Counted from the whole stretch's first letter, positions 6,900 through 62,189 are shown. The stretch: 62,889 nt of DNA, filler included, from Globobulimina sp. (GCA_003354225.1; 26 parts of 26 records of this genome joined end to end with filler, not necessarily neighbours in it), one strand, 5' to 3'. The notes: generated by a model not told the origin, from the letters alone. Program-made: numbers and translations.

Positions 6900-7172
6900 T
6901 TATTCTGAGCGCGCAAACAACAACCAAATATTATACAATTTTTCGATGGTTCCTATACCATTTCCCGCAATGTTTTCTGCAGAATAAACATCAAATCGTG
7001 CCCAAAAATTTAATACAGAAACTGTATCGCCTTTAATCAACAAGGACTCATCCAATAATTTGCCATCTTTAAAATCCTGCTCAGTCAAACTATATATTAC
7101 TTGCGCCTTATTATCATATTCATCAATTACTACCGAGTCAAATGAGCCATACTCCGTAATTTTCAAAACCCC
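6900..7172 (-). CDS. 3' end of an unknown gene (partial)
   Basis: Open from the contig edge to a stop at 6900; protein-like composition. Confidence 0.55.
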   Translation of the reverse strand, partial: GVLKITEYGSFDSVVIDEYDNKAQVIYSLTEQDFKDGKLLDESLLIKGDTVSVLNFWARFDVYSAENIAGNGIGTIEKLYNIWLLFARSE

Positions 7173-7272: not shown

Positions 7273-8494
7273 ATCCAATGACGAGAACACAGCAGGAGCT
7301 GGGTATAAAAATTCAAACCCGAATACAACGACATATGGTATAATTGCAGGCTTGGTCGCATTAGTAATCGTTATGTTTGCCGCCTGTTTGGTGTATCGCC
7401 ATTTCCTCCGCAAAAAAGAAGCTCAAATGGAGGTCTTATTTGGTTCTAAAGCAATGCCCCGGCAATTATCAGACATCGTAAATGAAACAAATGCAAAGGA
7501 AACCACATCGCCACCGGTACCCGAGACCACAATATCACCACCAATGGAAGGCGAAGGCGACGCCAATACGACGCAAATTAGATATTATGGCTATGATGAA
7601 CGTGTTCGATCTGCCACGGTCGCTACAAATCCATTGCATTTCACGCAAAATGCAAACAGCAGACGAGGCACTGATATTTCTCAACGCAGTCATCAGCCAT
7701 ATGTTAATTATGCAGCACATCAACAAATGTATCAGCATCCACAAAAAAATATGTATCCGGTCGCCTCGCATTCACAGCGAAGTTTCCATGCAGCGCAACA
7801 GCAAATGCATCAGCAAAATATGTATGCGCAATCCGGGCGAAACATGAATCAAAAGGTGCAACATGTTCAGAATAATAGTTATCCTACGCAGCCACACTTT
7901 GATGTGGCAGCGTATTATGCAAATTATGGAGGATCGCAACAGAATATGCAGCAGAATGCAGGGCACAATCAACAGCCAAGCGGTCAGAGCCAACATCCAC
8001 AGCAACAGTTAAGTGCTGAATGCCAAGTGATAAGCCCTATGGCCACAGAAGATGATACCGGTGCATTTCCTGCGGATATTCATCATTTTGTATTTGGTGA
8101 TGCTGATCAGGAAGAACGTGAGGAACATGATGAGGAGGAAAAACATGATGTATTACATGAGGAGGATGGTACTGAAGGTAGTGATGGCAGTGAGAGTGAG
8201 GAAAGCGGTGAGACTGAGAGTGACAGCGATAGTCATCATACACATACTAAATTTGAGAGGGCAAACACAATGTTGCCATACATACATAGTGAAAATACGT
8301 TACGTGGATTTATAAAAAATGATATTAAAATGCATACAGGTAATGACCAAGTTGAATTACAACCACTTGATGATATAAATGAAGATGGTGTAAATGAAGA
8401 CAATCATAATCGAGACATGACGATATTGAGTGATATTAGTGATATGAATTTAGAATTTACCACATTGTCAAATGTATTGTCGTTTAAGGAGTAA
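7273..8494 (+). CDS. Type I membrane protein, C-terminal part (TM helix, Q/H-rich and acidic cytoplasmic tail)
   Basis: TM helix GIIAGLVALVIVMFAACLVY followed by RHFLRKK; long ORF. Confidence 0.8.
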
Positions 8495-8778
8495 GTAATA
8501 TGTATATATTTTTTGCATGTTTGTATTATGTTTTTGTTTAATTAGTGTTTTTAATTAATTGTGATAAATTATTTTTGTTTGAATCATTTATCATTCGTTT
8601 TTATTATTTTGTTGCATTGTTTATAAATACAGATGAGATTAAAAACAATTTTAATTCATCGGACTTATCATTCGAATCTGAAATTTGTCAAATAATTCAA
8701 ATCCTTGCACTCAAATACTATTTTAAATACAAACAAAAAACATTGCACGCGATGTATGTGCAGCCAACATGAATATAA

Positions 8779-25170: not shown

Positions 25171-26562
25171 ATGTCAGCGTCCTACAGTCTATTCAAAACA
25201 CATTGTGGTGCTTCAGGAGTAGAACACAGCACCACAGGCAATTTTACATCACCAACTGATATCAACCTAATTGTTGCCAAAAACAATATCATTGAAATAT
25301 ACAAATTACCGGATGAGACACCAAAAAATGCGGACACCAAACTCTCATTGATTGCACGTTATAGTTTATTCGGAGAAGTGCAAGACATTAAAACGGCTCG
25401 TTTTGTGCCCAACCATTGTGATTCACTGTTAATCAGCTTTCCTGATGCAAAGCTATCCGTAATTGATTTTGATGCCTCACAACATAATATAATCACAGTG
25501 GCATTATTTAATTTTGATCCATTATACCGTCGCATAGGAAACATCACCTCCTGCGACGATTTCAATATCAGAGTAGACCCATTGCAAAGATGTGCGGCCA
25601 TTATGATATCGCATGACTTATTATTTATTTTGCCACTCTTTGTGAGCTATCTAAAAAAACACAAACAACGCAAAGGCAGCAATCCTATAAACATTGTATT
25701 TCATGATACATTGGCCAATGAACATCAACAAGAAATTGAAGAAGAGGAACAACGTTTAAATCCGACACAAAATCACAATAATAACACGCATATAAACGGC
25801 CATGGCCATGGCGGTGCCAATCGACATAATCGACATAACCGTAATAACCGTCGTAATCATAACAAATATATATCCCCGTTGCCACCACCATTGCCGCCAC
25901 CCAATGACCCGGCAAGCCGTATAAATGTAGATGAGGGCGGTGGCAATGAAGAGGAGGAACAGGAAGACATTGATTACATACAAAGCATGAAAGCAGGTCT
26001 GATTTTTGTGTTTTATTATTTGTTTTGGTGCGAGGATATAAATAATATGTGTAAAATAATCAGATGGCAGTATTAATGGCAAACAATTTGATGATGCTGA
26101 CGAATGGGACATTGCTTACCAAAAACAGACGTATTATCATTATAAATCCTTATGTGCGAAAAGCTATTTTATTATAAATTTGCGTGCGAAGTGTAAGAAA
26201 ATTGTGGATTTTATCTTTTTGGACGGCTATAATACGCCGCAAATATTAATGTTATTCGAGAAAACAGCTACATGGGGCGGCAGGATACCGGTCCGCAATA
26301 AAACCATTTCCTTATTATCCATGACCTTAAACGTAGTGAGCAAACAATATAATATCCCCTTTATACTCTGTGATATTTTATCGTATGATTTCAATAAATT
26401 ATACCCCATCTCCTCCAGCAGCAATATGTTGCATTCGAGTGTGATATTGCAACAAATAAACAATAACAACAAAAGTAAATATATCCAAACTAACGTAGGT
26501 GGCGCGTTTTTGATTGGCAGCAATGCCATCATTCATTTTGGACAAAATATTGATTTCGGTCT
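25171..26562 (+). CDS. CPSF1: Cleavage and polyadenylation specificity factor subunit 1 (CPSF160), 3'-partial
   Basis: DSLLISFPDAKLSV, IRVDPLQRCAA, IVDFIFLDGYNTP..LFE..TWGGRI; intron 25997-26063. Confidence 0.95.
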
Positions 26563-27062
26563 NNNNNNNNNNNNNNNNNNNNNNNNNNNNNNNNNNNNNN
26601 NNNNNNTTAATTAATTAANNNNNNNNNNNNNNNNNNNNNNNNNNNNNNNNNNNNNNNNNNNNAATCACCATTTCCCAACAAAAATATTTTCAGTGCAAGG
26701 ATAAAAATTAAAAAATAACTACGCAAATTCGCAAATTCTAACTACGTTTTCACTCAAAGAAACTGTTTTTCACTCAAATTTTAGATAATTTTTCGACATT
26801 TAAACAACCACCATCCTTTCGTGACTGGAAGTCAAATCATAATATCTCAACACACTCTTTGATATTACAAACTGATTGTAAGCTTCATCACCAACAATCT
26901 CCACTGAACATTGTAGACAGGTATTTAACTCATTTTCACGACTTTGCGTTTTTTTGTAAAAATGCATTTTTCGAATAAAACATCACAAAAGTTACTGTAA
27001 AACACACAGCGTTGTGTTGTGTTCAAAACAGTGAAAGGATAAAAAGTAATTTTTGAAAAAAG

Positions 27063-27112
27063 GAAAATTCTAGAAATTTCTGTAAAATTCTAGAAATTTC
27101 TGGAAATTTCTA
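27063..27112. repeat. ~20-bp tandem repeat built on the palindrome AGAAATTTCT
   Basis: AAAATTCTAGAAATTTCTG x2 plus a partial copy, inside probable intron 26921-27178. Confidence 0.8.
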
Positions 27113-27182
27113 TTTTTTATTTTCTAAAATTTAGCATATATTAAATATTTTTATTTAACTAACTAACTAACATATAAGCACG

Positions 27183-31508: not shown

Positions 31509-33724
31509 GCATTGATAATACGTTTTAGGTGTTTTATGCTTTTTTGCTGCTTTAATTTTAAGTGTTTATTATTTGACGCATTTGCTGATGTTTTATATGT
31601 ATTTATACCTCGAGTATGCATAGCTTTATGTGAACCCAATGCCCGCTTGCTTTTAAATGGACCTTTTTGACATATATTACATATTAATCCCTGTCGTCTC
31701 ATATCAATATCCTCATCATTTGTGTTCTTATTTTCTTCTTTTATACATTGCATTATTTTCTCTTTTCTGATATAAGACAAAAAAATGTAGCAACAAAACA
31801 ACAAAAAAAAACGAAATTAAAATCCAAACTTAACTTTATTTTCCATAAAACTCTCTTTTCTCCGATTTTAACAGTATACAATACACTCATTGCAGTCACG
31901 TTATTTACATTGTTATCAAATGCAGCAAATAGCTCATCCATATTATGAATAATAATTCTTTTTATTTCATGATTTGCGGTTAATTTATTTTTCTGAATTA
32001 AATATAAAAGAAACAAATATGAATCAATTGAACCACAAATGTGATAAATTAAATTGTTTGCATCGATATCTGACTCGTTTTTATTCTCAAATCTATGCAT
32101 GAAGCAACAGCCAGATATTACCATATCACATATAAAGATCCAATCACTTTCTGTCAATTCATTTGGATTATAATTTAATAAAATATCTGCAAACAATGAG
32201 CATATTATTGAATCGGATGAGGCCATAAATTGAGTTAATAATACCAATAATTCTATCATTTTAAGAAAATACTTTTTTTTATTTGCTATATAATTTTCTT
32301 GTTTATATAAATATTGATGACAAATAATTGAATAAATGTGCTTATAATATGGGTAATATCTGTCCTTTACATTGTTTTGTAGAATATTTAATGCATTTTT
32401 ATACTTTGCCTCAATTATAAGATCTTCGACGAGTCGTTTTTTCCTATTTTCATGTGTAAAAAATGGAACGTTATACAATTGAAAATACCATTTTTGAGTG
32501 CATCCTTTAATATTTTTAATATATTTGGCTAATTTGTTGATATTATTTGCAATTTGAGAGTCTTTGATATATGTTACTAACAATGGTCTTTTTTCAACCC
32601 ATTTTTGCAATTTTAATTTGGTTGGCATTGAATAATTTATTTTATCAAAAGCCGACAAATTCGCCGCATAAAAATCACCGATCATATTATTCCAATGTGT
32701 ACAGTATTCTTCATTTAAATAAAAAAGTGTCATTGCTTTGATAATTTCTGTTTCATTTTCTTTCTTAAATTGTAATATGTCAATATTTTCATTATCACAT
32801 TTGATGTTTTTTAATTGGGATCCACCAATTTCTGAGCATGCGCAGCTTAATATGTTGTTTTCTTTGGTTTCTTCTGCAATTTCAAATAGTTGTACTTGTA
32901 CGTTATTGTATGACAATATATATTTATTATTGCTTGAATCGATACATCTCAATAAATAATATACACCCAATTTGATCGTGTTTGCTGTTTGTAACAGATT
33001 TAGTTCTTTGGCTTCTGTCAATGCCATTGTTATTAAACTTAGTTTTTCTGAAGATAAAAATCTAAAAACTGAGTCGTTTCGATTATAAGCAATCACAGAT
33101 TTGATATTCCCATAAACTCATCACAAAAAATCAACTGTACAATAGTACGAATGATAACTTAATTCTAGGTCTTCTTCAACTATTTTAACACAGATTGGAT
33201 TATTTTTGTTGTCGCCATTCGATCCCATCAAACCACTACAAGCATAGCATTGCAGACACAACTATTGAGCTAATTTTCATTGTGGTGATCGGACTTCAAC
33301 TTTTGGAGTTGATTGCTCACCACAATAAATTAGCTCAATAGTTGTGTCTGCAGTGTCCGATGTGGTGACCGCACACTCTTTGCACATCGGCCTTGATAAA
33401 CAAACACGTTTTTCATATTAAAATCCGACAACTCCGCAAATAAAATATAATCCTTTATCATATGATACAATTTACTTGTTTTGTTTGTTTATCATGGCCG
33501 ATATGCAAGATGCAGTGTATAAATAACAATATAAAGAAAAAGAGGAAGATGAATCTTTTTCCCGTTTGTCGATCACTAATCGTGTCTGCAGTGTTTGCGT
33601 TTGTGTGTCTGGGTTGATGTCTATGTGCAAGGTTAAATTCACAATACCTCAATATCTCATAAGTACTTTTCTTGGCTGCGATTCGGATGTATAGTGATAT
33701 CTGTTTTGTTGGAGGCTGGGCAAT
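31509..33724 (-). CDS. Multi-exon hypothetical protein with a C2H2 zinc finger (partial at both ends)
   Basis: Intron 31767-31834 links ORF 31753-33096 to CNICQKGPFKSKRALGSHKAMH; upstream exons 33159-33235 and 33648-33724 join in phase via intron 33236-33647; unresolved in-frame TGA TGA at 33118-33123. Confidence 0.6.
33248..33355. repeat. Long inverted repeat (~40-bp stem)
   Basis: TGCAGACACAACTATTGAGCTAATTT is a perfect reverse complement of AAATTAGCTCAATAGTTGTGTCTGCA; continues with ATTGTGGTGA/TCACCACAAT. Confidence 0.95.
33380..33508. repeat. Inverted repeat with 27-bp arms (2 mismatches)
   Basis: 33380-33406 pairs with 33482-33508. Confidence 0.92.
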
Positions 33725-33830
33725 CTAAATAGTTTCTAAAATAGTTTCTAAAATAGTAACTAAATAGTTGCTAAAGCGTTGCTGAATAGGCTAGGTTTCT
33801 AAATAGTTACTAAATAATTGCTAAATAGTT
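33725..33830 (-). repeat. ACTATTTAG-type repeat array related to the MITE at 61990
   Basis: Multiple CTAAATAGTT units; reverse complement AACTATTTAGAAACCTA matches the 4867-4885 region. Confidence 0.8.
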
Positions 33831-33930
33831 NNNNNNNNNNNNNNNNNNNNNNNNNNNNNNNNNNNNNNNNNNNNTTAATTAATTAANNNNNNNNNNNNNN
33901 NNNNNNNNNNNNNNNNNNNNNNNNNNNNNN

Positions 33931-36252
33931 AGCTGATGATATTAAAGAAATTGTCATTCCACAGTATCGAAAAGAAGAAACAAAGGTAGCAATGAATGAG
34001 AATAAAAATGATGAAGCTGCGATGGAAGACGTCGTGGCAACTTTATTAATACCTGAAGGCGATACTTATTCCATGGCGAAATTAAATTTATGCGGAAGAC
34101 TGTTTAACAGCAACTTGGCCAATACGCAGTCCTCAAAAAGGGCAATTATATTTGTGGTGGATAAATCTGGCTCGATGAGTGGTGGCAGGATCACCGCCGT
34201 ACAAACCGCACTGCTGCAGTTCGTAGAGGAAGTCTGTGATGCTCAGGACCCCAATGTCATTTTACATTTGATTTTGTTTAGAGGGCAAGCCACACATTAT
34301 CCAATTCCGAAGGACAGGAACGAAGCCACGCAATTAATTAAACAGCAAGTAACAGCTGGCGGTGGTACTGATTTTTACAATGCTTCTTTAGAATTAGTCA
34401 AAGTGTCAAAGAATATTATTGAGAAATATCCAGAGCATGAGGTAGGTCGATATGATATTATCTGTTTGTGATTTTGCTCACAAATCTATGTTTTTCTTAA
34501 TGCTTAATACAGATTACATTAATTATGTGTTCTGATGGCGAAGTCGGCAAAGACAATGCGCAAAAAGCGCATAACTGTTGGAAGGAGTTTATAAATGCAC
34601 AATATTTGAAGCAGCATTCGACAGTGCCCTATGTTGAGTGTATTGGTATTAGCAACGAACACGATGCTGACATTTTGGGTGGGTTTATTTGTGTGGATGA
34701 AAATGGAAATTATTCAAAATGTGTCGATGGTGATGCCATATTAGAATCATTTATGAGATCACAAAAAGAAGCGATGAGCAGAGTGTCCATCAAAATTATT
34801 GTCCAGTCTCCATTTAATATTCTAAATAACATTTATACCAAAGACAAAACCAAGAATAAAGTGTTTCTTTTAACAAATTCCGACTTTTTCAATGAGAATT
34901 TCTTTGTCGATAAAAGCGAATTAAATAAATTGATAAATAAAAAAAAAGGACAGCAATTACAATTGTGTTTGTTGTATAACAATGAATCAGAATTTGTGCC
35001 TATAACTATTCAAAAAGGGTCGACTCGTTTTAATCAAATATTGTCGTTGGAATATTACAATCAATATTTAAATGATATTATTCAATCATTAAAAAACATT
35101 AAAAAAGAAGCTGACTTGAAACAATTTGCAAAAACGATCGATGTGGAATTAAAGAATAACACCAATGTATTTGCTGCGATTTGCACCGAAGAAGACGATA
35201 AAATTAAAACCGAAAACGCATTAAAACTGTTATTTCAAAATGAAAATGCATTGCGATTACACAACGAAGGCGGCACAAACGACGCGAAAATAGCTTTGAT
35301 CCAGAAACGTAGAGCAGAATTGATGAAATACTATAAAAATAATAACCGAAATAAATGGAAAAAACTACGGAAATATATCACATCGTTCGAATCGACATTA
35401 TCGTCGTTAAAACACTTAATCAAAGAGATCTTGTCCGATGCCACTCGATTGCAAGAAATCAGGCAACATATTATGGAGCTACATTTCACCAAAAAACACT
35501 CGAAGAGAGTGGACAAATTGATATTAAGTGACGAAGAACTATTAAATCGGGACAAGTTTTACGAGAATGCAATGGATAAAATATCCAACATCAAAGCGGA
35601 GGATTATGAGCTTGTAACAGCGGAGTACGGCACTGGCTGTTTTTTGTCGACCTTGACATTGCAGGACATTGTGGAGGAAGGCGAGCCGCTGTGGCTCTGT
35701 GGCCGCGTCGACCAAAAAGGCGGCTTAGCAGTGTCCAATCCGGAAGCCATCAAAATTGAGTATATCAGTCCGGATTTGTGCTGTGACAGTTATTTCCGAA
35801 TGGCGTTGAAATCGAGCGACAACAAAGGATTTTGCGACTCGTCGCGACAGAATATTTGCGTGCGGATCTTCCCAATCTATGCGAATCAGTGCCATTATGA
35901 TATTACGCGCGTGTTCTTAAACGAAGCTCTTTCGCATTGTTTGAGCGGAAGGACCGATCTGAAAACCACAGAGTATGGCAGTTTGTTTGCAGTGATCGGA
36001 TACATGATTACAAGAATGAAATTGACGCATTTGAACATTGACCGGATATTCAATTATTTGTTGCCGTCGCTACAAATATTTGCACGGAACACCAAAAGCT
36101 TTCCCTTTGTCAACACGTACCAAAAAACCATCGATTTCAAAGCGGAGCAAAAAGATAAAATCACATTGAAGCAACAATCACTGATTCGACTGTCCAGTTA
36201 TTTGTCTTCGTTTGCGTCCAGAACGTCGTCGTGGATCAGTAATATCAATGTA
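33931..36252 (+). CDS. von Willebrand factor A domain protein (partial)
   Basis: MIDAS motif VVDKSGSM, GGGTDF, IMCSDG; intron 34442-34512. Confidence 0.9.
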
Positions 36253-36399
36253 NNNNNNNNNNNNNNNNNNNNNNNNNNNNNNNNNNNNNNNNNNNNTTAA
36301 TTAATTAANNNNNNNNNNNNNNNNNNNNNNNNNNNNNNNNNNNNNNNNNNNNTTATATATGAGGTTTTTTGTTATTGAGTGTTGTAAAAAACGTTTTAG

Positions 36400-38523
36400 A
36401 GCTGATACGATATCTGGATATTTCCAAAAATATCAATTGGGGGTTGGTGGCTGTTGTGACGTATTTACACCAAATGCAGGCTATTGGTGCGGTAATCATT
36501 CGCAAGGTGGCGGTGCTTTTACTTATAGAAGTTTGGTAGAATATGCATTCAAAGTTTTTTTCTTTTAATTAATACTGGTTTTGCTGTGTTTTACTTTTAC
36601 AGTTCCAGCTGGATTGACTTATAATGCTGCAACATTACCAAATGCACCGTATGCAAACCCAACCGGTGCAGTAATTGTTAAGTTATATATTTTCATGTAT
36701 AAATTTGCTAAAACCCACATCCATTATACAGCAATCATGGCGTCCAGGTGATTGTATCCATTTCATTTGCATATTCTTCTTTTTTAGTATTGCAAACAAA
36801 ACAAAAAAAGGTCATTGGTCAAGTTGGATGTTTGCAGTGAATGCAGCAAAATATAATCCATCCTCCAGGACCATAATGTTTGCAAAAGGTGGTTTTCAAG
36901 GTAGGAATCTATATTTTTATATATATTTATGTTTTTATGATCGGTGAACTAGGAGCACGAGGTAATAATAACGGGGATGAATTTTTTATTGAGAATGTGG
37001 CGGAAGAGTTAGATTTCCCAACCGAATGGTTTTACAATGAAACGACAAAAACATTATTTTACAATGCCAATGGCACTCAAAATCCAAATGATTTAACATT
37101 TGAAGCCACAAATTTAAAAGTATTGGTAAATTATACTGGCACTATGGCCAAACCAGTCGAGAATCAACAAATACGTGGTTTGACGTTGCGGGATACACAA
37201 ATTACCTATTTAGACCCGCATGGAATGCCATCAGTTAAGTCATTTATTCTCTACATGCAACCTTACAATCAATACTCAAAAAGGGCGGGGATTGGGGATT
37301 GGAGCGTAGTGGCGGCATTTATTTAGATGGCGTTAGAAATATACAAATCTCATCCAATGTATTAACGCGTTTAGACGGCAATGCAATATCAATAAATCGC
37401 TATGCTCGCGATGTTGTAATCGAGAGGAATGAGATTGTCTGGCAAGGCGATAACGCAGTGAGTAGCTGGGGCGATACAAAGGATATACCGTTCACTGATG
37501 GCACCAGTATGGGGTGGGATGGTACAAACGGTAACCAACCCCGCGGTGTACAATTCACACAGAATATTGTGCATGAAATCGTATGTACACAACACGGAAT
37601 ATTGTGCCAAATGAAATGCTGAGCACACAAATTATAAACAATTAAACAGGGCATTTGGGAGAAACAATCGAGTATGTGGTTCCAGGCCAAATCGTGTTCA
37701 AATTCGTTGGATTCCAATATTTTCTTCAATGGTATACTGCATTATACATATTTTTGTCACCACAAATCAAATGTAAATATATGAACAGGACCAAGAGCTG
37801 GCATTAATTTTAATGATGGTTTCGGTGGAAACTCTACGATAAGAAAGAATTTATTGTTCAACACATGCCGTATGTCTATGAATGTGTATATATATATATG
37901 CTGACATATAAGTTAATAATTATTGTAAAGGTGAATCAGGAGACCATGGTCCTTTTAATTCATGGGATCGCCAGGTATATGTTACCGGAGTCAAAAATGG
38001 CACAGCTTCTGTGATTAAAGAATGGGATGTTATTTCTAATAATTTTATGGTAGCAAACTATAACAGTCAGGAAGCCATTGACAATGATGATGGCAGTTGT
38101 TATTATCATACACATGATAACTTTTTTGTATATTCTGGGAATGGAATGAAGAATGATTTTGGCGGACATGACAATCATCATTATAACAATATTTATGGTT
38201 ATATTGGACACTGTTTTGGTGTAAATGGACAAATCCAAGGCCATCAAGATGCGTTTTATAATAATACCTGTGTCATTTCAAGTGCACAAACACAATATGG
38301 CACATTTGATTGTTCAGCACAAAATGCGGGTAATCAATGGCCAAAATTAGGTGATAATACCGTTTATATGGCCACTGGGGATCCCACAAAGGTCGGTTTA
38401 TGTGGACAAACAGAGGCAAACTTTCAGAGAGCACATCCTGGTGTCGATGATAGGACTGTTATTAAAGGACCGCCTAATAATGCGGATATTATTGCTGCTG
38501 CTAAACAATTATTACTTGGTTAG
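36400..38523 (+). CDS. Right-handed beta-helix (pectin-lyase-like) protein, multi-exon, 5'-partial
   Basis: Introns 36531-36602, 36677-36731, 36748-36810, 36901-36952, 37234-37283, 37581-37649, 37732-37788 and 37870-37930 give a continuous frame (GPRAGINFNDGFGG, RESGDHGPFNSWDR, AIDNDDGS); 16-nt microexon 36732-36747. Confidence 0.88.
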
Positions 38524-38774
38524 TAAAATAATGACATATTTGTAGAATATTTATTTTAATTCATAAATACTATTATATACCAATAAGATTATAGCCTTGC
38601 ACTCCTATTGTCATTATAGAAACACTTTGGTGTTAAAATGCAAATCGAGAAAAAAAAACAAAATGATACAATATNNNNNNNNNNNNNNNNNNNNNNNNNN
38701 NNNNNNNNNNNNNNNNNNTTAATTAATTAANNNNNNNNNNNNNNNNNNNNNNNNNNNNNNNNNNNNNNNNNNNN

Positions 38775-39032
38775 GAATATGCTCAACCCAAACATATACC
38801 CACAGATACAGACAACAATAGAAAGAACAATTACAATGGTTAAACATTTATTTTTTGATTTACCTGATATTGTTTTGGTAGCCCAAGTTGGAGAATATGA
38901 TATCAATTTATTCAACCATTTAAAATGTTTTTCAACTGCATTTTCTGAAGAAATACTATCCTCCTGATTTTCATCTTCATGCAAGTGATATTTTAAATCT
39001 AATTCAGATGATTGAACGTGCAAATGCTCCAT
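38775..39032 (-). CDS. 5' end of a membrane protein gene (partial)
   Basis: ATG at 39032; TM segment LTIVIVLSIVVCICGYMFGLSIF runs off the contig. Confidence 0.6.
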
Positions 39033-39077
39033 TTAAGTCACAATTTAAGGTTTTTTTTTGCGGAAAACTCATCAATA

Positions 39078-40733
39078 ATGGATTCACCGCAACATTTACT
39101 TGATAACACAATTGCGTTAACAAAGAATCTGAACCATGTCGCTCAAACAAGTGAAACAACCACAATGGAGGAATCTAAATATTCGTCAGAGAAAATACGC
39201 AGAATCTCCAAACCGAAAACACAAGAAAAAACAAAATCAATTACATTAAGTTCAATGAGCGATATCAATAATCCAAATTGGAAAACTCCCGGAGACCGAG
39301 AATTACGCAGAATTGTACACTTTGATGGCAATGAGGAAACATTATATTTTTCGCCCGACAAATACCATCACAAAAAAATATTCATATCCTTCACCATCGA
39401 CAATATCGCTGTGGATGAGGTCAATGAACAATTTCGCCTCAAATTCTACCTCCAATTCAATTGGATTCCGTCAGAAAAAGATTATAAATCGTTGCATAAA
39501 GCCGTCGTAGAATCACAGAAATTAAACAAACCTCAAATATTAACTGAGTGGGTTCCAGAGTGGTATCCGCATTTGGAATTTGATAATGTTGTACGAGAAC
39601 ATATTTGTGAATGGAGAGCTCATCCATTAATTCCTCAAAAAGGGCCGTTTCGTGTAGCGCAATATAAAAAATGGGGAAATGACCGGAATACGGAAACGAA
39701 TGCAATGTACAGAGAGTATGACTTTGAGCGTATAAAATGGTTTTGTGCGGAGATGGAATGCGATTTTACTTTTCGAGAGGAATTAGAACTGCAATCGTAT
39801 CCCTTTGATGTGCAGGATTTGTCCGTTTGTATGCGAATAACAGAGAAAGATACGATAACTTATTCTATTTTTGGTTTACCGAATTATTTCAATGCAGATG
39901 CGACGGCGCTGACTGATGCAAAATATGAGAAACAGTGTAAACATCCGGGTTTGGTGGGAACTATGGATCCGTCGTTGAGTCAGTTGGATCAGTGGGATGT
40001 CAAAAATTGTCTGATTGAATTTGAATTTACTAAAATTGTGTTAAGGTAATACTGCGTTTAAACAAGTGAATGTTATGCTGATGGTTTGGTAAAATTAAAT
40101 ATTGCAAGATAGCTTCGTCAATATTTAATTTATTGCTTCGTCAGCATAAAATTAAGCAATTATAGTTATACAACATTTGTTTACATTTTCAGTGTGAAGC
40201 TAGCCCGAAGGTGGAGACCGGTGGTAATCAATACGTTATTGATCGTATTTTTAGTGTCAATACTATCATTTACTGTGTTTACGGTAGATTTTGAAGATAC
40301 TGCCTCGAGATTAGAGCTCACAATGACGCTCATATTAACTGCGGTTCTTTTTGATATAAAGAGTTCACCGAAACCATACTTGACTTATTTGGATAAGTAT
40401 ATATTGACAAGTTATGGATATTTGACTGTGGTGATGATTGAAAATGCAGTTTGTGGATATTTTGATGAGGATTTTGATGGTGTAATGTTCTGGATTGTAG
40501 TGGTTTTATTTTCGATGCAACATATTGTATTTATAACGTATGCCATTGTTGTTCGACAAAGGGAAAACAGGAAAATATTTATGGGATATCAACAAGTGAA
40601 GAAATATAATAAACGTTATGAAATTGAAAGGCAAAAATTTGTCTTGTATGAAAAGAATATTAAACAAACGGGAATCAATAAATATCGTAAATGCTTGACA
40701 ATCAGTGGTATGGGTGGAGAAGATGCAAATTAA
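39078..40733 (+). CDS. Pentameric ligand-gated ion channel (Cys-less Pro-loop type)
   Basis: FREELELQSYPFDVQDL, LARRW, four TM helices with RLELTMTLILTAV and PYLTYLDKYI; intron 40046-40192. Confidence 0.88.
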
Positions 40734-40784
40734 AGCATTGAGTTTTTTTTTTTAGTAAGTGTAAATATAAAGTCAGTATAAGCC

Positions 40785-41096
40785 ATGTCAACTTCAATAT
40801 TGCGTCAACATTTACGGGATTATCATAACTTTCGATTTAAGGACGAGATCGCTAGCAATTCTCACTTTGGTGATTTTGATAACACACCAATCCAAAATCC
40901 ATCGCCACAACAGAAAAAGAAAAAAATTACGGGTAAAAAAATCAGGAGAAAACTAAACAAAGAACGTAGTAAAATAATATCATTCCAAAACGATGTTACC
41001 TCAAATGTCAAACATAATATCGCTATTTTAAAACGTTTGGAAATCCAAACACATCAAAATATTCCTCAATGGCAAGAAAGATGGGATATGATTAAG
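40785..41096 (+). CDS. 5' end of an unknown basic protein
   Basis: ATG-initiated ORF running off the contig; NLS-like KKKK. Confidence 0.55.
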
Positions 41097-41196
41097 NNNN
41101 NNNNNNNNNNNNNNNNNNNNNNNNNNNNNNNNNNNNNNNNTTAATTAATTAANNNNNNNNNNNNNNNNNNNNNNNNNNNNNNNNNNNNNNNNNNNN

Positions 41197-41537
41197 ATTT
41201 GGATAAAGTTGAAAAATGGGTGCAGCAGAGAGCAAACACTATTTATTCGATAATTGATGAATATCCACAGTTATACAAAAATGATATTGACAGACAATAT
41301 CGATCCGTTATGAATATACCATTTCGGATTTATGATTATGCGGAAAACCGAATTGATTCCGTTTTGGAATATAAATTTTTAAAACAAGCAGAAGAGGAAT
41401 GGTATTTGCATCAATTGCATGGACATAGTTCCGTTGGCGGGATGGCAGTTAGTTTACATACGGGAATTCCGGATGATTCAATTAAATCATGTGCAAAATT
41501 TATGAAATATTTTGCTGATTATCACGTTGGCAATTAA
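41197..41537 (+). CDS. Phosphoserine aminotransferase-like C-terminus, divergent (partial)
   Basis: YRSVMNIPFRI..FLKQAEE..LHGHSSVGG. Confidence 0.85.
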
Positions 41538-41676
41538 TGATTATACGTTAGAATGTATATTAATTGTGTATGTAACAACATCTTTAATTAATTATGAACG
41601 GTTCTTTGATATTTCTCATCCAAAGTCCGTAGAGTTTCGAAAACTTTTCTTTAACTTTAAAAACTTATCTTACGTA

Positions 41677-42663
41677 ATGTTTCGCAAATGTTTAGGGTTT
41701 AGAACGAAACCATATCAGTTGCAAACTGTGAATATTCAATCTTTTCAAACGAAAGCTAAAGTTCTGCCATTAACGGTGTTGCAGCGTAAAGATTTAGATC
41801 ACATTGATCATGACAGATTAATCGACATCGTTTGTAACGTTGGTTTTTTAAAATTAGAAATTGCCCCACATATTCGAGATATACTTGATGAGATTGACCA
41901 AGAATTAAAATTCTTTTATAAAGAAATAAATTATGGACAAACATTGCAAGACAAGCAAATGTTAAGTCATTGGTGGCCTCAACAATTATTATTTTTTGGA
42001 TATAGCAATCATATCAATGACCCGAAGCCGAGCCAATTCGAACAATTTCATGTGAATCCAACAATGATGCATCACGAATTAAATCCATTTAAAGAAATGG
42101 CGAATGTGATGACATTATTTGATTATCTCTGTACTGAGTCGTATGAAATATTTGAGAAAATATGGGTAAAATTAGGAATTTTTCCATTAAGTGATTTTGA
42201 AACAATGTTAGGTGGAAAAAAAGAATTAAATCAAACAATCACTGTAAACAATTTCGATCCGCGTACGTTGACAATGAACAGCGGCAATAAAGCAATGGAC
42301 GGCTTTCCCGGGCACAGCGATAGCGGATTACTCACCATTTTAAGGAGTGGAGGTCCTGGTTTTCAAGTATTTTATAATGGTGAATGGCATGATATTGATT
42401 ATCATGATAGAAATGAAAATTTTGTGTTGAATTTTGGCTGTTTAATGGCAGAAACAACAAAACATACAAAGATTCCTTTTACATCATGCCGTCATCGTGT
42501 TATACCAATCACAGATTTCCAACGATTAAGTATTGCCATTTTTAATGATGCTCCGTGGGATGGAATGTTATATCAATATGATGAAAATCAAAAACTTTCC
42601 CCATACAAAACATATAAATCGCATATTCAGTCCATTTACGATGCTATAGTTGGACGGGAATAA
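41677..42663 (+). CDS. 2OG-Fe(II) dioxygenase (isopenicillin N synthase-like)
   Basis: HSDSGLLTIL, HRV, RLS; likely start MFRKCLGFR. Confidence 0.92.
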   Translation: MFRKCLGFRTKPYQLQTVNIQSFQTKAKVLPLTVLQRKDLDHIDHDRLIDIVCNVGFLKLEIAPHIRDILDEIDQELKFFYKEINYGQTLQDKQMLSHWWPQQLLFFGYSNHINDPKPSQFEQFHVNPTMMHHELNPFKEMANVMTLFDYLCTESYEIFEKIWVKLGIFPLSDFETMLGGKKELNQTITVNNFDPRTLTMNSGNKAMDGFPGHSDSGLLTILRSGGPGFQVFYNGEWHDIDYHDRNENFVLNFGCLMAETTKHTKIPFTSCRHRVIPITDFQRLSIAIFNDAPWDGMLYQYDENQKLSPYKTYKSHIQSIYDAIVGRE

Positions 42664-42820
42664 TAATTAAATTATATGTACATTTTTCTTTGTATAATTT
42701 ATAAATAATATTTTTATAACAACAACTTTTTTTACACGGTGTGCCATCACATATGTCATAGTGACCTAAGTGTTCGAAGACATTTAAGTTCCAAACGGAA
42801 TTTACTTTCATAATTACAAG

Positions 42821-43518
42821 TTATTTACATTCATTTTTAACATATGTTTTTTCGTCAGACCAATAGCTTGGTAATGAATTATAGCGATCATCTTGGCAAA
42901 TAAATATAAATTTGGCATTTCTTTTCCTTGAAGTATCAATTACAGATTGCATTTGAGTTTGAGACTGAATGCCGTAAACCATATGAGATATATTGACTGG
43001 TATCGATGCATTTTGAGTCCATGACGGATTCCATGAATTATAATTATTGACACTCTGTTCATAAACAACAATGGTGTCTGCACAGCCTCTTTCATATCCA
43101 ATATTCGGTACAACTCCGGGATTAATAATAACATAATTATTTCGCGAAGATTTAGCTTTAACGTATTTATATAAATCTTGATAATATGGTATTTCTGCTG
43201 TTGTTTCAGCCGCCTCATCAAAAAATATTCCATTTACATTGTACCATTCATAGAATTTATCCACTTCGCTTTCCACTGCGGATGACGCTCGTTTACCATA
43301 CGATGTATGAACATAGCCAATCACTCCGGTTCCTGCAGATTGCGCCTTACTTGATACTGCTACCCATGCTATTTCAGACACTCACAAATATAAAATATAT
43401 CATGTACTCTTTGGGCTTATGGTATACCGCTGTTTGGATTTAATATTAAATATCCTTCAATTCCATAAAGTGCATTCCAAGAGTTGTCACCTTTAATAAT
43501 AAAATATTCATTCAAAAA
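42821..43518 (-). CDS. Spherulation-specific family 4 / GH135 protein (5'-partial)
   Basis: ILNPNS, VIGYVHTSYG, GIFFDE, IINPG, DTIVVYE, YNSLPSYW; short intron near 43371-43428. Confidence 0.9.
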
Positions 43519-43618
43519 NNNNNNNNNNNNNNNNNNNNNNNNNNNNNNNNNNNNNNNNNNNNTTAATTAATTAANNNNNNNNNNNNNNNNNNNNNNNNNN
43601 NNNNNNNNNNNNNNNNNN

Positions 43619-45510
43619 GTGTCGGAAGTAGGGGAATGGTTAATCGACAGACGGTTTAAAGGTAAATTCGATGAATATGTGGCAATATTTCGCCAACACG
43701 AGATTGACGGCGAAGCACTGCTATCATTGACGGATTCGAAATTGCAGGAAATGGGCATCAGCATAGTAGGTAGACGGACAAAACTATGCAACGCGATAAA
43801 GAAATTAAAAAAACGGACCGATGTAAACATTTCCAAAACATACCATCAAACCGCAAATAATAATAAATCCAACCAAGCAAAGGATGGAAGCACCAGTTAC
43901 AATGAACAAAATTTGCACTTAATGCAACACATTGATCCAATAAAATATATGCTCAAAAAACAAAGAGCAATTCAATCCGCTGGCGGTACGCAGCCAAATT
44001 CGATATATAGCTCTGTTATGTTGAGAAAAAAGAGAGAAACGGCACAGATTATTATCCATTCCATTGCAAATTCGAAAAGTAATTTAAATATAAGTGATAC
44101 GGCAATGGCGCAAGAACAGAAAAATAATGGCATTATAAAACGGATGAAATATGATTCGAAAATACCAAATTTCAACAATATCAAATCTGAAAACGCTATA
44201 AAATACGCATGGAATTCTGATCAAAAACGGTGGGTCAAATCATCGATAACCATCAAAATGGCTAAAAATCCGTTTGAAACTGGCTCGTTACGAATTGCAT
44301 ATTATTGCATTGTCATTTCCGATTCACAATCTGTGCCAAAGTAATATTTCACAGTCAAAACAAACGACAGATGTCAACAACAAAACGTACTCAAACAAAC
44401 GGAACAAACGGAACAGAAATCGTTGTTTGTTTGTTTGTTGTTCGTGTGCTGTTTTGACTGGACATGTTGCTCAACACTCAGCTATGATGACATTTGCACT
44501 CCAAAAGAGAAACACCATGAACGAGCGAGGTGTGTCATGATTTTCAGTAAAATGTTTTTTTGAGTGAGTAACATTTTCAATTGTTAAAAATCATTTTTTT
44601 AAAAACTGTAAGGCGTCAAAGTTATGACACATCCGACAAAGTAATGGCGTCTTTATTCGGCGTAGAAGATATTTTTGGTGGACAATTGTATGTGATCAAA
44701 AAGGGAAATTCGTTGATCGATTCACAACAAAACAGTTTAAATATATATTTCAACGACGTCAGAACGCAAATCGAATCCAAACGATTCGCAGACGAATATA
44801 ACAAATATAATCCGCCCAAAAAAATAACGTTTTTGGATTGCTCCGTCGTTCAATTAATTGATAAGAAACCAACCAAACGCGATTATGCCATCTATGAGAA
44901 TGCGCAAATAAATAAAATCGGAATCCATCAGTTTTATGGTTTGGAGCCGTATTTGTTTGGCAGATATACAAAGCATTCGAATAACATCGGGTGGGATGAA
45001 AATAAGAGGAACACTCCCGCAGCTTTCACGCATTTTACATTGGTGGCCTCCAATAACAGATTATGTGTCTGTGACATCCAAGGCGTCAATGACTTGTATA
45101 CAGATCCTCAGATTCATACATGTAATGGTTATGGATTTGGGTGTGGCAATCGAGGGAATCAAGGCATTTTGGATTTTATCAGCAACCACAAATGCAATGC
45201 GATCTGCGCGCATTTTAAACTCTTGCCGTACTCGAAAAATATTATACTTAATAACAAACAGAAAACAATCCCGCATACGCGTTATATGAAGGACTTGAAA
45301 ATTAATGTGATCAGTACTCAGTTTATCGACGATTTCCGATCGTTTGAGATTCCATATCATATTCTTTATAAACCGTTGCAAGAGTTTCCGCCGATTATGG
45401 ATTCGCAAAACAGTGATATAATCTCACCATTGTTGGGTCATGATCATATTATTCGGGATGGTGATGGCAATGACGAGTGTGATGGCTGCTGTTCTTGCGG
45501 TATTTTGTAA
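43619..45510 (+). CDS. SAM domain + alpha-type (eEF2K/MHCK-like) protein kinase with C-terminal CaaX (5'-partial)
   Basis: FRQHEIDGEALLSL, PFETGSLRIAY, AFTHFT, VCDIQGV..YTDPQIH, GxGN, HKCNAIC; intron 44341-44612; ends CCSCGIL. Confidence 0.93.
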
Positions 45511-46040
45511 GTGGTTGACTAGGTTTTTTAATTGACGTATTATTTAATGTTTTTAGCTCGCTATTAATTTTATGTTCGATTAAATCCATCAAATGTCTGT
45601 CATATATTACAAGTCCATCACAACAATAACACTTAAATCAAGCATAAGGATCAAACACAACAGGCTCCCAAAACTGATCCATATGACACACAAATCTTTG
45701 TATATTGGCATCTTTTTTCCTAACAAACCATAAATTATTCGAATCTTTCTTAAACCCATTTTGCTGAAACGATTTACAAATTGAATTATCAAATTCTTTT
45801 GATTCATTTATAAAAATACCCAAATAATTTACATTATTTATCCTTGAAACTGAATTATTTATTTTGACAATTGACTCTTTTGTGTCCTTTTTATTTTTAT
45901 TTTTATTTTTTTTATGATTTTTCGTATTTGGAGAATATAANNNNNNNNNNNNNNNNNNNNNNNNNNNNNNNNNNNNNNNNNNNNTTAATTAATTAANNNN
46001 NNNNNNNNNNNNNNNNNNNNNNNNNNNNNNNNNNNNNNNN

Positions 46041-51880: not shown

Positions 51881-52858
51881 ATGGGTTCCTTTAAACGCGC
51901 TCAGTCTAAAGCGTTAGCAGTACGCCGCGGTAAACGCGTAGTCCATATCAACGAAATCAAAAACAAATGTAAACGGCACCAAGTCTGGACTCAACGTAAA
52001 GGCGAAATCAATCGCATAAAACGCCGCGCATACTTCAAACGACGGCAATTGCGTAAAAAGTATGGCTTTGCTGCAGCACCGTACAAGATCCATACGCAAG
52101 AAAGCAAACGTGTTCCAGATGAGACTATCATCGAAGGATACGATGAGGAAATCGAAGGCGAGCATGCCATGGATGAATTTGCCGCTCATTTCACCGGCTT
52201 GGCCCAGCCCAAAATCTGTATAACGAGCTCGCAAAGGCCACTCAAAAAAACAAAGGAATTTATCAACGAGCTATTGGATGTGTTTCCCGATGCAAAATAT
52301 TTCTCGCGGAGGAAGTTCACCATCAAAAACATTGTGCAGCAGTCCATTGAGCGCAAATATACGGGTTTGATTGTGGTGCACGACGATAAAAACAACCGTG
52401 GATCAAAGGGATGGTGCAGAGGGCCGCACAAATTATTGCATGTGTCACTGCCCAATGGACCCACTGCATTCTACAGATTGACAACAATCAAAAAAAGAAC
52501 GCAGATTTATAGAGGGGCCGTGTCCACTGCGCATAGGCCTGAGCTGATTTTGTCGAATTTTGCGACTAGGTTAGGGGTGAGGTTAGGTCGAATGTGCGCC
52601 ACTTTGTTTGATCAAAGGGCCGAGTTTCGAGGTCGACAGGTGGTCACGTTACGGAACCAAAGGGATTTTGTATTCTTTAGGCGACACAGATATGTGTTTA
52701 AGGAGAATGGACAGGACTGCGCACTGCAAGAGTTAGGACCGAGGTTTACGTTGAAGTTGATATATTTGCACGAAGGGCTATTCGATCCCAGACAGGCGGA
52801 TTATGAATGGAAATGGCATGAGGATATGGGAAATCTCAGATTAAAATGGAATTTGTAA
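51881..52858 (+). CDS. RPF1: Ribosome production factor 1 (Brix domain)
   Basis: TQESKRVPDET, LPNGPTA, PELILSNFATRLG, NQRDFVFFRRHRY, LQELGPRFTLKL. Confidence 0.95.
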   Translation: MGSFKRAQSKALAVRRGKRVVHINEIKNKCKRHQVWTQRKGEINRIKRRAYFKRRQLRKKYGFAAAPYKIHTQESKRVPDETIIEGYDEEIEGEHAMDEFAAHFTGLAQPKICITSSQRPLKKTKEFINELLDVFPDAKYFSRRKFTIKNIVQQSIERKYTGLIVVHDDKNNRGSKGWCRGPHKLLHVSLPNGPTAFYRLTTIKKRTQIYRGAVSTAHRPELILSNFATRLGVRLGRMCATLFDQRAEFRGRQVVTLRNQRDFVFFRRHRYVFKENGQDCALQELGPRFTLKLIYLHEGLFDPRQADYEWKWHEDMGNLRLKWNL

Positions 52859-53099
52859 TGCAGATCACTGAAAACATGTGTTGTTGTTTATTTATACTTG
52901 ATTTATATTTTGATGAGTTTAATAGTTTGTAAATCCTTGCACTCGGAAGTTGTGTTACAGACTGCATTCGAAACATAAAATTGACAAATTAATATCACAA
53001 ATTCATGCACAATAATCTTAAAATTAAAATTTTCAGTAAAAAGTTATTATTTAATAAAAAAAAAATAGAGGTCAGAACAAGTGATTTTAGAGAAGATTA

Positions 53100-60468: not shown

Positions 60469-60637
60469 NNNNNNNNNNNNNNNNNNNNNNNNNNNNNNNN
60501 NNNNNNNNNNNNTTAATTAATTAANNNNNNNNNNNNNNNNNNNNNNNNNNNNNNNNNNNNNNNNNNNNAAAACATTCAAAGAAAATTATAAAGCTGATAC
60601 TAATTGGAATGCTTTTGAAGAGGTCCAATTCATTAAT

Positions 60638-61717
60638 TTGCGTCGGAATATATTAAGTATTTTGAAAACTGATAAAAATTATAATATAAAAAAATTGCGT
60701 TACCCACCACCAGAAGCAACCTTGACAGATTTACAAAAAAAAGGATATAAAACAAAACATAATTATAAGAATACATCTTTACACAGACTCCGTACATTAA
60801 GAGAGAACAAACGAATATGTAAACGCGTTGAAATGACACAATATGACAGTGCTGCAGCAGCAGTTGAGCCCAAATCAAACACAAATAATCAAAATTTAGC
60901 TGTTCCTTGCAATACATTGAATCAATTTGCATATAAACCAAACGAAAATGTATCTCATTCTCATTCTAATTCAAATCAAAATATTTGGAATTTATCTCAT
61001 CAAAACAAAGCATTAAATCAATTTAAATTTCAACAAAATAATATTAATGTACCTAATCCAAGTTCAATTAAACAAAATCATTATTTATCTCATCCATATC
61101 AAGCAAACACAAATATCTCTCATTCCAATTCAAACAAAAACAATTATAATCATCAATATCAATCTAATAATATCAATGTACCTCATTTAAACTATTCAAA
61201 TAATTCTAACATTTATTCTTGTTCAATTAATGAACACTCAAATAATAATATTTTATCTCATGCAAATATTGGCATTCCGCCACCGTTACCAATGCCAATA
61301 CCAATCCCATTGGTCCCTGCTAATCAGACAGGTAATATCGCGGATATGGTTCGAAAACGAAGCCATGATGGTTTACAATTATTAGCTGCAAAAACTCAAG
61401 CATTTGGAAGTAAGCAAAGCTCGACATTTAAGAAAGCTGCATATAATACGGGTTCACAAGATCACAGACAAAGATTTGGCTATAAACAACCACAGATGAT
61501 TTATAATCCATTACTAAGTGGTAATATTAGAAATATTATGTCAACCAAACATAAACAAAATAAAAAAGCAAACAAAAGGAAAAGGAAGAAATATAATGAT
61601 GGATTGACAGATGTTACACCACAAACAATGAAAAATGCATTAAAAGAAGAGAATGATGATACCAATCCACTTAAAAAAAGGAAAAGAAACGGACGGAATA
61701 AATTAAAATCAAAATAA
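60638..61717 (+). CDS. N/H-rich low-complexity basic protein (5'-partial)
   Basis: 359-aa ORF with internal imperfect repeats and basic NLS-like tail. Confidence 0.65.
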   Translation: MRRNILSILKTDKNYNIKKLRYPPPEATLTDLQKKGYKTKHNYKNTSLHRLRTLRENKRICKRVEMTQYDSAAAAVEPKSNTNNQNLAVPCNTLNQFAYKPNENVSHSHSNSNQNIWNLSHQNKALNQFKFQQNNINVPNPSSIKQNHYLSHPYQANTNISHSNSNKNNYNHQYQSNNINVPHLNYSNNSNIYSCSINEHSNNNILSHANIGIPPPLPMPIPIPLVPANQTGNIADMVRKRSHDGLQLLAAKTQAFGSKQSSTFKKAAYNTGSQDHRQRFGYKQPQMIYNPLLSGNIRNIMSTKHKQNKKANKRKRKKYNDGLTDVTPQTMKNALKEENDDTNPLKKRKRNGRNKLKSK

Positions 61718-61989: not shown

Positions 61990-62189
61990 GAGCCTACACA
62001 AGTTAATTAGTCACTATGTGACTATTTAGTGACTATTTGTGACTATTTAGTGACAAAAACGAAAATGGGCAACTATTTAGTGACTATTTCAATACAGAAA
62101 CGGAAAATGGTGACTATTTAGGTAACTATTTTTGTCTATTTAGGAAACATACGCAACTATTTAGGCGACTATTTAACTTGTGTAGGCTC
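61990..62189. mobile_element. 200-bp MITE with 25-bp TIRs and 8-bp target-site duplication
   Basis: GAGCCTACACAAGTTAA...TTAACTTGTGTAGGCTC (17 bp perfect, 25 bp with 2 mismatches); GATTTCCA at 61982-61989 and 62190-62197; internal RACTATTT repeats. Confidence 0.88.

Follow-up and report, generated by a model that had tools for sequence, protein, structure and literature searches.

In yeast, a stem within the intron is an established means of shortening the effective length of long introns; in the sections of PMC2536676 and PMC12350175 that treat these zipper stems, long yeast introns are structured whereas short ones mostly are not. Two further systems involve introns that spread. Transposon-made introns, or introners, are documented in many protists (as described in PMC9860276), and fungi carry symmetrical proliferating introns bounded by terminal inverted repeats, of which the stwintrons of Hypoxylaceae could form double-stranded intron RNA (as described in PMC8469720); the defining trait of both is the presence of many sequence-similar introns at unrelated positions. 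MITEs, finally, are listed in PMC5172404 as short, non-coding, high-copy elements with terminal inverted repeats that lie near genes.

Here, we analysed a 62,889-nt stretch of Globobulimina sp. DNA (GCA_003354225.1, filler included; hereafter the window), which consists of 26 whole contigs of ~2.3 kb each from an AT-rich eukaryote. Its nearest named homologue is from the foraminiferan Reticulomyxa filosa, and a GH38-like ORF is present. An initial annotation had proposed that long introns in this DNA are filled with stem-loops that restore the modal length of the short ones (50–88 nt). The strongest of these stem-loops turned out to be an abundant palindromic repeat in DNA devoid of intron support, arguing for ordinary fold-back repeats rather than a special splicing system. 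We therefore consider it probable that the stem-loops represent fold-back (palindromic, MITE-like) repeats, together with local inverted repeats, that built up in the scarce non-coding parts of a protist genome that is compact and rich in AT.

Table 1 Positions and folding of the intervals, hairpins, repeats and reference introns in the window. Empty cells, no entry.
Feature	Position	Strand	Fold (kcal/mol)	z	Shuffles as good	Remarks
59-nt intron	31550–31608	−				One X3 spliced contig skips 59 nt; ends CT..AC
68-nt intron, short-intron reference	31767–31834	−				X3 and X6 contigs skip it, ends CT..AC; X1 contig reads through
Claimed 412-nt intron, unsupported	33236–33647	−		−8.9		Bordering open frames 25 and 12 codons long; no junction contig
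Hairpin A, 108-nt near-perfect palindrome	33248–33355		−61.4	−13.7	0/200	Termini CAYTGCAGACACAAC...GTTGTGTCTGCAGTG; copy of high-copy dispersed MITE-like repeat
Hairpin B, 129-nt imperfect fold-back	33380–33508		−45.4	−7.5	0/200	Single-copy at the likeness used
Third, solo copy of hairpin-A terminus	33573–33593					Right-end orientation; direct repeat of 33335–33356, 86%
Tandem 11–12-nt repeat, CTAAATAGTT-type	33724–33830					Reaches contig end; part of second dispersed repeat
Verified 147-nt phase-2 intron	40046–40192	+		−3.30		GTAATA...TTTCAG; three colinear homologues
Stem-loop in 147-nt intron	40073–40149	+	−26.9	−6.4	0/200	Perfect 9-bp outer and 13-bp inner inverted repeats, G-U-rich segment between
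Intervening sequence, SAM and alpha-kinase gene	44341–44612	+		−1.71	7/200	One 272-nt intron, or introns 44341–44481 and 44530–44612 around a 48-nt exon
First stem of 272-nt interval	44352–44460	+		−2.8	2/200	Arms mostly (CAAA)n/(GTTT)n low-complexity, closed by 11-bp perfect pair
Second, weak stem of 272-nt interval	44464–44574	+		−1.9	8/200	
Comparator, palindromic 10-nt microsatellite hairpin	27056–27117			−6.1		(GAAATTTCTA)n; TRF and inverted-repeat listings
Comparator, 200-nt element	61990–62189		−75.5			ACTATTTAG-type tandem units bounded by 23-nt terminal inverted repeats; arms 96% complementary

Intron evidence at the three long intervals

Read contigs from four runs, X1 (DNA) and the RNA-like X3, X6 and X8, were placed on the contig at 31509–33830 only. 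X3 and X6 act as RNA, because their contigs skip introns there. One X6 contig carries 22 loose letters at its 5′ end that match nowhere in the window at ≤3 mismatches, so that no upstream exon is placeable for it. The three RNA-like runs have zero cover at 33069–33224; from 33381 to the contig end cover is again zero in X3 and X6, and in X8 too except for a depth of 10.8 at 33693–33770, and these blank stretches carry no evidential weight.

An ORF-joining heuristic, meant to supply an independent intron catalogue and to reveal hairpin-free long introns, returned 531 and then 49 candidates, mostly spurious, and was abandoned. Long-intron candidates such as those at 8439–8545, 25647–25776, 6823–6958, 697–867 and 52855–53036 were rejected, their flanks looking non-coding or being gene ends. 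No candidate could be verified, and they therefore yield no counter-example and do not independently confirm the ~25 short introns reported initially. With zero verified long introns that lack a hairpin, the proposed pattern consequently meets no counter-example and rests on n = 1 or 2.

Extended inverted repeats are indeed present in all three intervals for which they had been described, with strong folds at 33236–33647 and 40073–40149. The assertion that all three are long introns in convincing phase held to a different degree at each. It is borne out at 40046–40192, within a gene for a membrane protein without Pfam family: homologues P0001–P0003 read ...EFEFxKxVLS/xKLxRRWRP... across the junction, colinear and gapless. 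The flanking exons of 344 and 179 codons are otherwise uninterrupted, making this the sole intron in ~1.6 kb of coding sequence. Its hairpin (arms 40092–40104/40119–40131, 100%, and 40069–40081/40141–40153, 92%) occupies the 6th-ranked of 2314 100-nt windows in an unbiased scan.

This intron offers an argument for structure-compensated splicing—that is, for a strict intron definition under which selected stems bring the splice signals of long introns to a distance of 50–88 nt, as the zipper and downstream stems of S. cerevisiae do. [quoted passage not shown] In addition, a cryptic in-frame acceptor at 40144 falls within the right arm, and the two introns with spliced contigs are both short (68 and 59 nt). 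A yeast-like zipper-stem effect is possible for this intron. However, it is one verified case, whereas the strongest stem in the window is a repeat outside any demonstrated intron, and we regard structure-compensated splicing as unlikely.

[quoted passage not shown] The otherwise uninterrupted exons would suit such an origin, as would the precedents from protists and fungi cited above, and the intron resembles introners and stwintrons in being nearly all fold-back. Yet whereas those families comprise many similar introns, a second copy of the 147-nt sequence is absent from the 26 contigs, and when metagenomes were scanned for both outer arms of the hairpin, a single locus (L001) came back, a chance match given its unrelated interior. 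Nor is a target-site duplication evident at the intron, and we find an introner-like insertion most improbable.

At 44341–44612, at least one intron must be present, as the interval divides the alpha-kinase domain, with SAM in exon 1 and Alpha_kinase profile positions 20–185 in exon 2; the tail of exon 1 and the head of exon 2 align to P0005–P0007, in which a hypervariable insert separates them. A two-intron model fits as well (the alternative donor at 44530 is in frame). Folding here is weak: although arms 44352–44362/44450–44460 are 100% complementary, both stems and the whole interval score poorly (Table 1), and the 45 top-ranked of the 2314 windows include none from this interval. The 272-nt sequence has no second copy in the 26 contigs.

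At 33236–33647, by contrast with the homologue-backed intron, the assertion found no support. Of the two flanking frames, the 12-codon one terminates in a stop, and contigs joining 33235 to 33648 are absent from the four runs. This region is most likely repeat-rich 5′-flanking or intergenic DNA upstream of the gene with its ATG at 33027. With its main stem a high-copy repeat, it lends no demonstrated intron to structure-compensated splicing.

A dispersed palindromic repeat at 33248–33355

Hairpin A (arms 33248–33276/33327–33355; 29 nt, 97% complementary) is a copy of a dispersed, high-copy, palindromic MITE-like repeat. In X1, the summed word depth over 33225–33380—which is no copy number—amounted to 7424 and 6436, as compared to 6.65 for the flanking single-copy DNA (the contig covering 31556–33280), and 449 X1 contigs match the contig at 31509–33830. 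At the X1 loose ends (33251 and 33355/33356), consensus agreement was only 0.45–0.52, so copies of the hairpin have differing flanks. The excess recurred in X3 (206–236 vs 39.4) and X6 (63 vs 17.8), and the hairpin was over-represented in X8 as well. An insertion bias of fold-back elements, raised initially as an alternative, is thereby supported for the strongest hairpin, hairpin A, which is dispersed with differing flanks in the DNA run and three RNA-like runs. The remark that the arms are mutually unrelated and do not form one transposon family was right as regards the arms of the different hairpins, but hairpin A is itself a member of a repeat family with many copies.

Several traits of MITEs are found in this element: it is small and non-coding (108 bp, nearly all stem), bears terminal inverted repeats with a 15-nt terminus motif at both ends, lies near genes, and is dispersed at high copy with unrelated flanks. 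Where it departs from MITEs is in the target-site duplication: the flanks at 33248/33355, ...AAGCATAG and TCCGATGT..., share no direct repeat in the one copy with both flanks. A further difference from introners and stwintrons is that hairpin-A copies persist in RNA-like contigs and are not cleanly removed. Searches with the 21-nt terminus gave 0 matches in genome_contigs and 0 in viral_contigs. Within the window, the terminus motif CACTGCAGACACAAC has three matches at ≤2 mismatches (0.03 expected), all inside 33248–33593.

The surroundings of hairpin A are rich in further repeats. Hairpin B (arms 33380–33406/33482–33508; 27 nt, 93% complementary) has an X1 depth of 11.5, from one contig spanning 33327–33738. 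The tandem repeat at the contig end (TRF period 11, 9 copies) lies in an area, 33693–33830, with X1 depths of 363 and 309 vs 6.65 for the flanking contig, and its unit is found again at 4856–4908 and 62018–62175, the latter within the 200-nt element at 61990–62189. An outer 12-bp pairing between 33248–33259 and 33582–33593, previously invoked to leave a residual of 66 nt, does not appear in the MFE fold, in which 33248–33259 pairs within hairpin A.

Long near-perfect hairpins of ~75–130 nt could also be precursors of small RNAs, either hairpin RNAs or MITE-derived miRNA-like or siRNA loci, of which some would be intron-hosted; copies of hairpin A do occur in the three RNA-like runs. Rfam miRNA-precursor families do match below threshold, e.g., MIR6140 at 33252–33351 (42.5 bits, E 1.4e-06). 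However, the threshold for this family is 140 bits, such matches occur on both strands and are expected of any long hairpin, 0 Rfam families reach their gathering score across the whole window, and 40000–40250 has zero Rfam matches. We deem a small-RNA origin very unlikely.

Gene-flank hairpins and residual intron lengths

Strong hairpins are not intron-specific and reach equal strength in gene flanks. Six of 456 non-coding 100-nt windows scored z < −4, and these come from just three places: hairpin A, a 5′ ORF flank (27013–27162) and the 3′ flank of another ORF (61994). The microsatellite hairpin of the former lies just upstream of a 620-codon ORF starting at 27171; the 200-nt element of the latter lies ~270 nt past the stop of ORF 60521–61717. 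The stem at 40073–40149 stands out against shuffles (z −6.4), but gene-flank hairpins are comparably strong and the 44341–44612 interval as a whole reaches only −1.71. Sense and antisense folding energies and G-U counts were also considered as a sign of RNA-level selection and rejected, the asymmetry being uninformative because flank controls are equally asymmetric.

The residual lengths ascribed to the three intervals (70, 52 and 66 nt) vary with the choice of stems. The exterior loop of the MFE folds measured 12 nt (40046–40192), 8 nt (44341–44612) and 38 nt (33236–33647), and shuffled sequences behaved alike, with median exterior loops of 15.5, 17 and 15 nt in 60, 150 and 150 shuffles, respectively; a fraction of 0.37, 0.13 and 0.97 of the shuffles had a loop no longer than the real one. 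End-to-end shortening beyond what composition predicts, as expected of a zipper stem, was seen in none of the three intervals. As shuffled introns fold with their ends equally close, a residual of 50–88 nt hinges on the stems chosen and emerges only when these are counted. Structure-compensated splicing that restores a modal length hence received no positive support, with one verified structured long intron and shuffles that are equally short.

Possible origin of the stem-loops

Fold-back repeats as the preferred source would account for hairpins occurring both within introns and beside genes. Hairpin A, which lies upstream of a start codon amid other repeat fragments, with the second dispersed repeat next to them where the contig ends, probably exemplifies the latter. 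An insertion that lands in an intron, as may have happened at 40046–40192, would make that intron long; a palindrome would self-pair in the pre-mRNA and be tolerated because it would hardly increase the effective spacing of the splice signals. Such tolerance would be a passive consequence of what inserts rather than the work of a dedicated length-restoring system. For the hairpins of 40046–40192 and 44341–44612, a mobile or repeat origin is suggested by analogy, given that no other copy was found in 26 contigs and one metagenome scan.

A stronger version would have introns held to ~50–90 nt by an intron-definition spliceosome, with only self-pairing palindromic insertions surviving, such that fold-back transposons and splicing are co-adapted and a MITE hairpin becomes 'invisible' to the measurement of intron length. 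We think this quite unlikely. Were structure-compensated splicing true genome-wide, the principle of the yeast zipper stem would apply in a distant lineage of protists as well, and the shape of transposons would be tied to the constraints of splicing. At present, the value of the ordinary-repeat reading is modest: it comes with the caution that hairpin-rich "long introns" called from sequence alone may turn out to be gene flanks filled with repeats, and it brings to light a palindromic repeat family of 108 bp, abundant and undescribed, alongside a second dispersed tandem-repeat element, which together fragment the assembly into 2-kb contigs.

Folding of the three candidate long introns

To assess the stem-loops that the initial annotation had placed in three long introns, we folded each interval whole and compared it with dinucleotide shuffles. 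Interval 33236–33647 (412 nt, minus strand) scored z −8.86 (0 of 100 shuffles as good), 40046–40192 (147 nt, plus strand) z −3.30 (0 of 200) and 44341–44612 (272 nt, plus strand) z −1.71 (7 of 200). The first of these contains two fold-backs, one with 29-nt arms (33248–33276/33327–33355; 97% complementary) and the other with 27-nt arms (33380–33406/33482–33508; 93% complementary). On their own, the corresponding hairpins A (33248–33355) and B (33380–33508) reached z −13.7 and −7.5, the hairpin of the 147-nt interval (40073–40149) z −6.4, and the stems of the 272-nt interval z −2.8 (equalled or bettered by 2 of 200 shuffles) and −1.9 (by 8 of 200). Because these hairpin coordinates had been picked after the fact, we added a blind scan of all contigs (2314 windows of 100 nt, 20 shuffles each). 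Hairpin A ranked first of the 2314 windows (z −11.2), a window over the 147-nt intron's hairpin ranked sixth (z −4.6), and no window of the 272-nt interval was among the best 45. Genuine structure is therefore present, by shuffles and blind scan alike, in 33236–33647 and 40046–40192, where the proposed stem-loops stand, and 44341–44612 is a marginal case.

Folding was further said to leave residual lengths of 70, 52 and 66 nt, values that vary with the choice of stems counted. An outer pairing in the 147-nt intron (40059–40068/40174–40183) would leave 22 nt, not 70, and in the 412-nt interval the 12-bp outer pairing would draw on bases of hairpin A and is missing from the MFE fold. Measured instead as the exterior loop of the MFE fold (counting unpaired exterior bases and two for each exterior stem), the real values were 12, 8 and 38 nt against shuffle medians of 15.5, 17 and 15 nt (60, 150 and 150 shuffles), with 0.37, 0.13 and 0.97 of the shuffles at or below the real value. 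All shuffles had exterior loops of at most 88 nt; the statistic is non-discriminating because any sequence of this kind is predicted to fold with its ends near each other.

For several hairpins the sense strand folded more stably than the antisense strand, which we rejected as a signal since flank controls were equally asymmetric. Searching the whole window against Rfam returned no match at gathering level. Below threshold, matches to miRNA-precursor models covered both strands of hairpin A—what any long hairpin gives—and known RNA families are not involved.

Hairpin A and the 412-nt interval

The reading of 33236–33647 as a 412-nt intron found no support. The supposed upstream exon amounts to 25 open codons, beyond which come a stop and then a tandem repeat, and the supposed downstream exon reaches a stop after 12 codons (both on the minus strand); frames of this size are the chance expectation in DNA this AT-rich. 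Moreover, no contig of any sequencing run placed on contig 31509–33830 (X1, X3, X6 and X8) joins across the interval. The real minus-strand gene there is a 454-codon frame with its ATG at 33027. Run X1 acts as genomic DNA on this contig, with one unbroken contig over 31556–33280, and X3 and X6 act as RNA, their contigs skipping introns (see table); the X3 contig and the window disagree at a single position of 1334. At the 5′ end of this gene, the genome match of the RNA-like contigs stops at 33010 (X3) and 33028 (X6). The 20–22 further letters of these transcripts have no match in the 26 contigs; a spliced leader, an exon far upstream and a divergent UTR are candidate sources.

Hairpin A is one of the many dispersed copies of a palindromic element of roughly 108 bp. 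In X1 the summed word depth over 33225–33380 reached 7424 and 6436, compared with 6.65 for the adjoining single-copy contig; such depths are not copy numbers and read only as "many". The excess recurred in X3 (206–236 versus 39.4), X6 (63 versus 17.8) and X8, and X6 also held a form whose loop is 32 nt shorter. Altogether, 449 X1 contigs were placed on contig 31509–33830 (117 at ≥99%, 168 at 95–99%, 149 at 90–95% and 15 at <90%). Their loose ends accumulate at 33251 and 33355/33356 with a consensus agreement of only 0.45–0.52, and the hairpin-A copies therefore have different neighbours. Hairpin B is single-copy (at 88% likeness). Since all three matches of the terminus motif CACTGCAGACACAAC in the window fall within 33248–33593, this region looks like a cluster of hairpin-A family fragments.

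The 147-nt and 272-nt intervening sequences

Judging by protein alignment, 40046–40192 is a real intron, and here the proposal of an intron with a hairpin was borne out. Three homologues (P0001–P0003; 511–540 residues) cross the junction (...EFEFxKxVLS / xKLxRRWRP...) colinearly, without gap or insertion. The encoded protein has relatives 57–65% identical in EukProt, JGI and ENA data, and some stretches, among them PDKYHHKK and LELTMTLILTAVLFD, are strongly conserved. Use of a cryptic in-frame acceptor (CAG, 40142–40144) would shorten the intron to 99 nt and add 16 residues that the homologues do not have; this acceptor is part of the hairpin's right arm, and base pairing there could hide it. 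In metagenome contigs, the 12+12-nt pattern of this hairpin's arms matched only once (8908–8976 of L001, an unrelated AT-rich 85-kb contig); the sequence between the arms there is unlike the hairpin's, and the match was dismissed as chance.

From the split of its domains, 44341–44612 must hold at least one intron: the SAM domain lies in exon 1 and Alpha_kinase profile positions 20–185 in exon 2, and the exon 1 tail (...NPFETGSLRIAYYC...) and exon 2 head (...GGQLYVIKK...) align to either side of the kinase domain of the homologues P0005–P0007. The junction coincides with a loop where these homologues carry 100–200 extra unalignable residues, and homology therefore leaves the splice sites unfixed. 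A single 272-nt intron, as first annotated, fits, and so does an in-frame alternative with two introns (44341–44481, 141 nt; 44530–44612, 83 nt) around a 48-nt exon (44482–44529). The segment encoded by this possible micro-exon would be hydrophilic and rich in His, Lys and Glu, and would fall in the loop with the long homologue insertions. The gene product ends in a Cys-rich tail (CxxC...SCGIL-type) that is also present in P0005 and P0007. The nearest named homologue of any searched protein was a Reticulomyxa filosa "myosin heavy chain kinase" (48% identity); the others were EukProt, MMETSP, JGI and ENA sequences (57–65% identity). The source is a protist, possibly a rhizarian.

Fold-back repeats in the non-coding DNA

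Strong hairpins are not special to introns. The 456 windows that avoid long open frames included six with z < −4, from three loci (see table), and a verified intron holds just one strong hairpin, that of the 147-nt intron. Most likely, fold-back repeats populate scarce non-coding DNA: in a compact genome, this DNA would be occupied by MITE-like elements, palindromic microsatellites and local inverted repeats, and a long spacer or intron would be long because a fold-back repeat sits inside it. One may reasonably infer that an intron would tolerate a self-pairing insertion since it adds little effective length. Two of the three claimed long intervening sequences were verified, and no verified long intron without a hairpin was found in the 26 contigs; structure compensation thus shrinks to one clear case (the 147-nt intron) and one marginal one, a pattern neither established nor refuted genome-wide.

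Features discussed in the text and their positions
Feature	Position	Strand	Details
Contigs bearing the claimed long introns	31509–33830; 38775–41096; 43619–45940
Intron, 59 nt	31550–31608		Skipped by X3 contig
Intron, 68 nt	31767–31834		Ends CT..AC; skipped by X3 and X6 contigs
Predicted membrane protein gene	39012–40730	+	Roughly 520 residues; without Pfam family
SAM + alpha-kinase gene	43619–45507	+	Architecture common to MMETSP transcript P0007
Hairpin A	33248–33355		Locus with z < −4
Palindromic microsatellite locus	27013–27162		Locus with z < −4 (−6.1 alone); just upstream of 620-codon frame
Self-complementary microsatellite (GAAATTTCTA)n of this locus	27056–27117		Hairpin, z −6.1
TIR element	61994		Locus with z < −4 (−4.5); ~270 nt past stop codon; whole element −75.5 kcal/mol
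Full extent of the TIR element (MITE-like, 200 nt)	61990–62189		23-nt terminal inverted repeats, 96% complementary, around ACTATTTAG-type tandem units
11–12-nt tandem unit (ACTATTTAG-type), three contigs	4856–4908 (contig start); 33724–33830 (contig end); 62018–62175

The compensation mechanism initially put forward is essentially the yeast zipper-stem/downstream-stem model. In vivo probing in yeast, as described in PMC12350175, placed zipper stems (42–85-nt linker definition) in 32 of 88 introns; structure was a feature of long introns and absent from most short ones. Introns made or dominated by inverted-repeat elements are described for introners (PMC9860276), and 45–55-nt terminal inverted repeats for symmetrical stwintrons (PMC8469720). 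With these cases in print, the concept of structure-assisted or inverted-repeat introns is not new, and the novelty here is at most a repeat family not described before, from a protist that has been little sampled.

The window is composed of 26 separate whole small contigs from a fragmented assembly, sorted by length from 2324 down to 2321 bases and separated by N44-TTAATTAATTAA-N44, with a G+C content of 25–42% in 2-kb bins. Several contigs start or finish in one common dispersed repeat, which probably broke the assembly there. The tandem repeat at 33724–33830 is multi-copy (X1 depth 363 versus 6.65 on the flank), and X1 depth over 33693–33830 is ~50x the flank. The microsatellite hairpin sits about 55–115 nt upstream of the 620-codon open frame, which starts at 27171.
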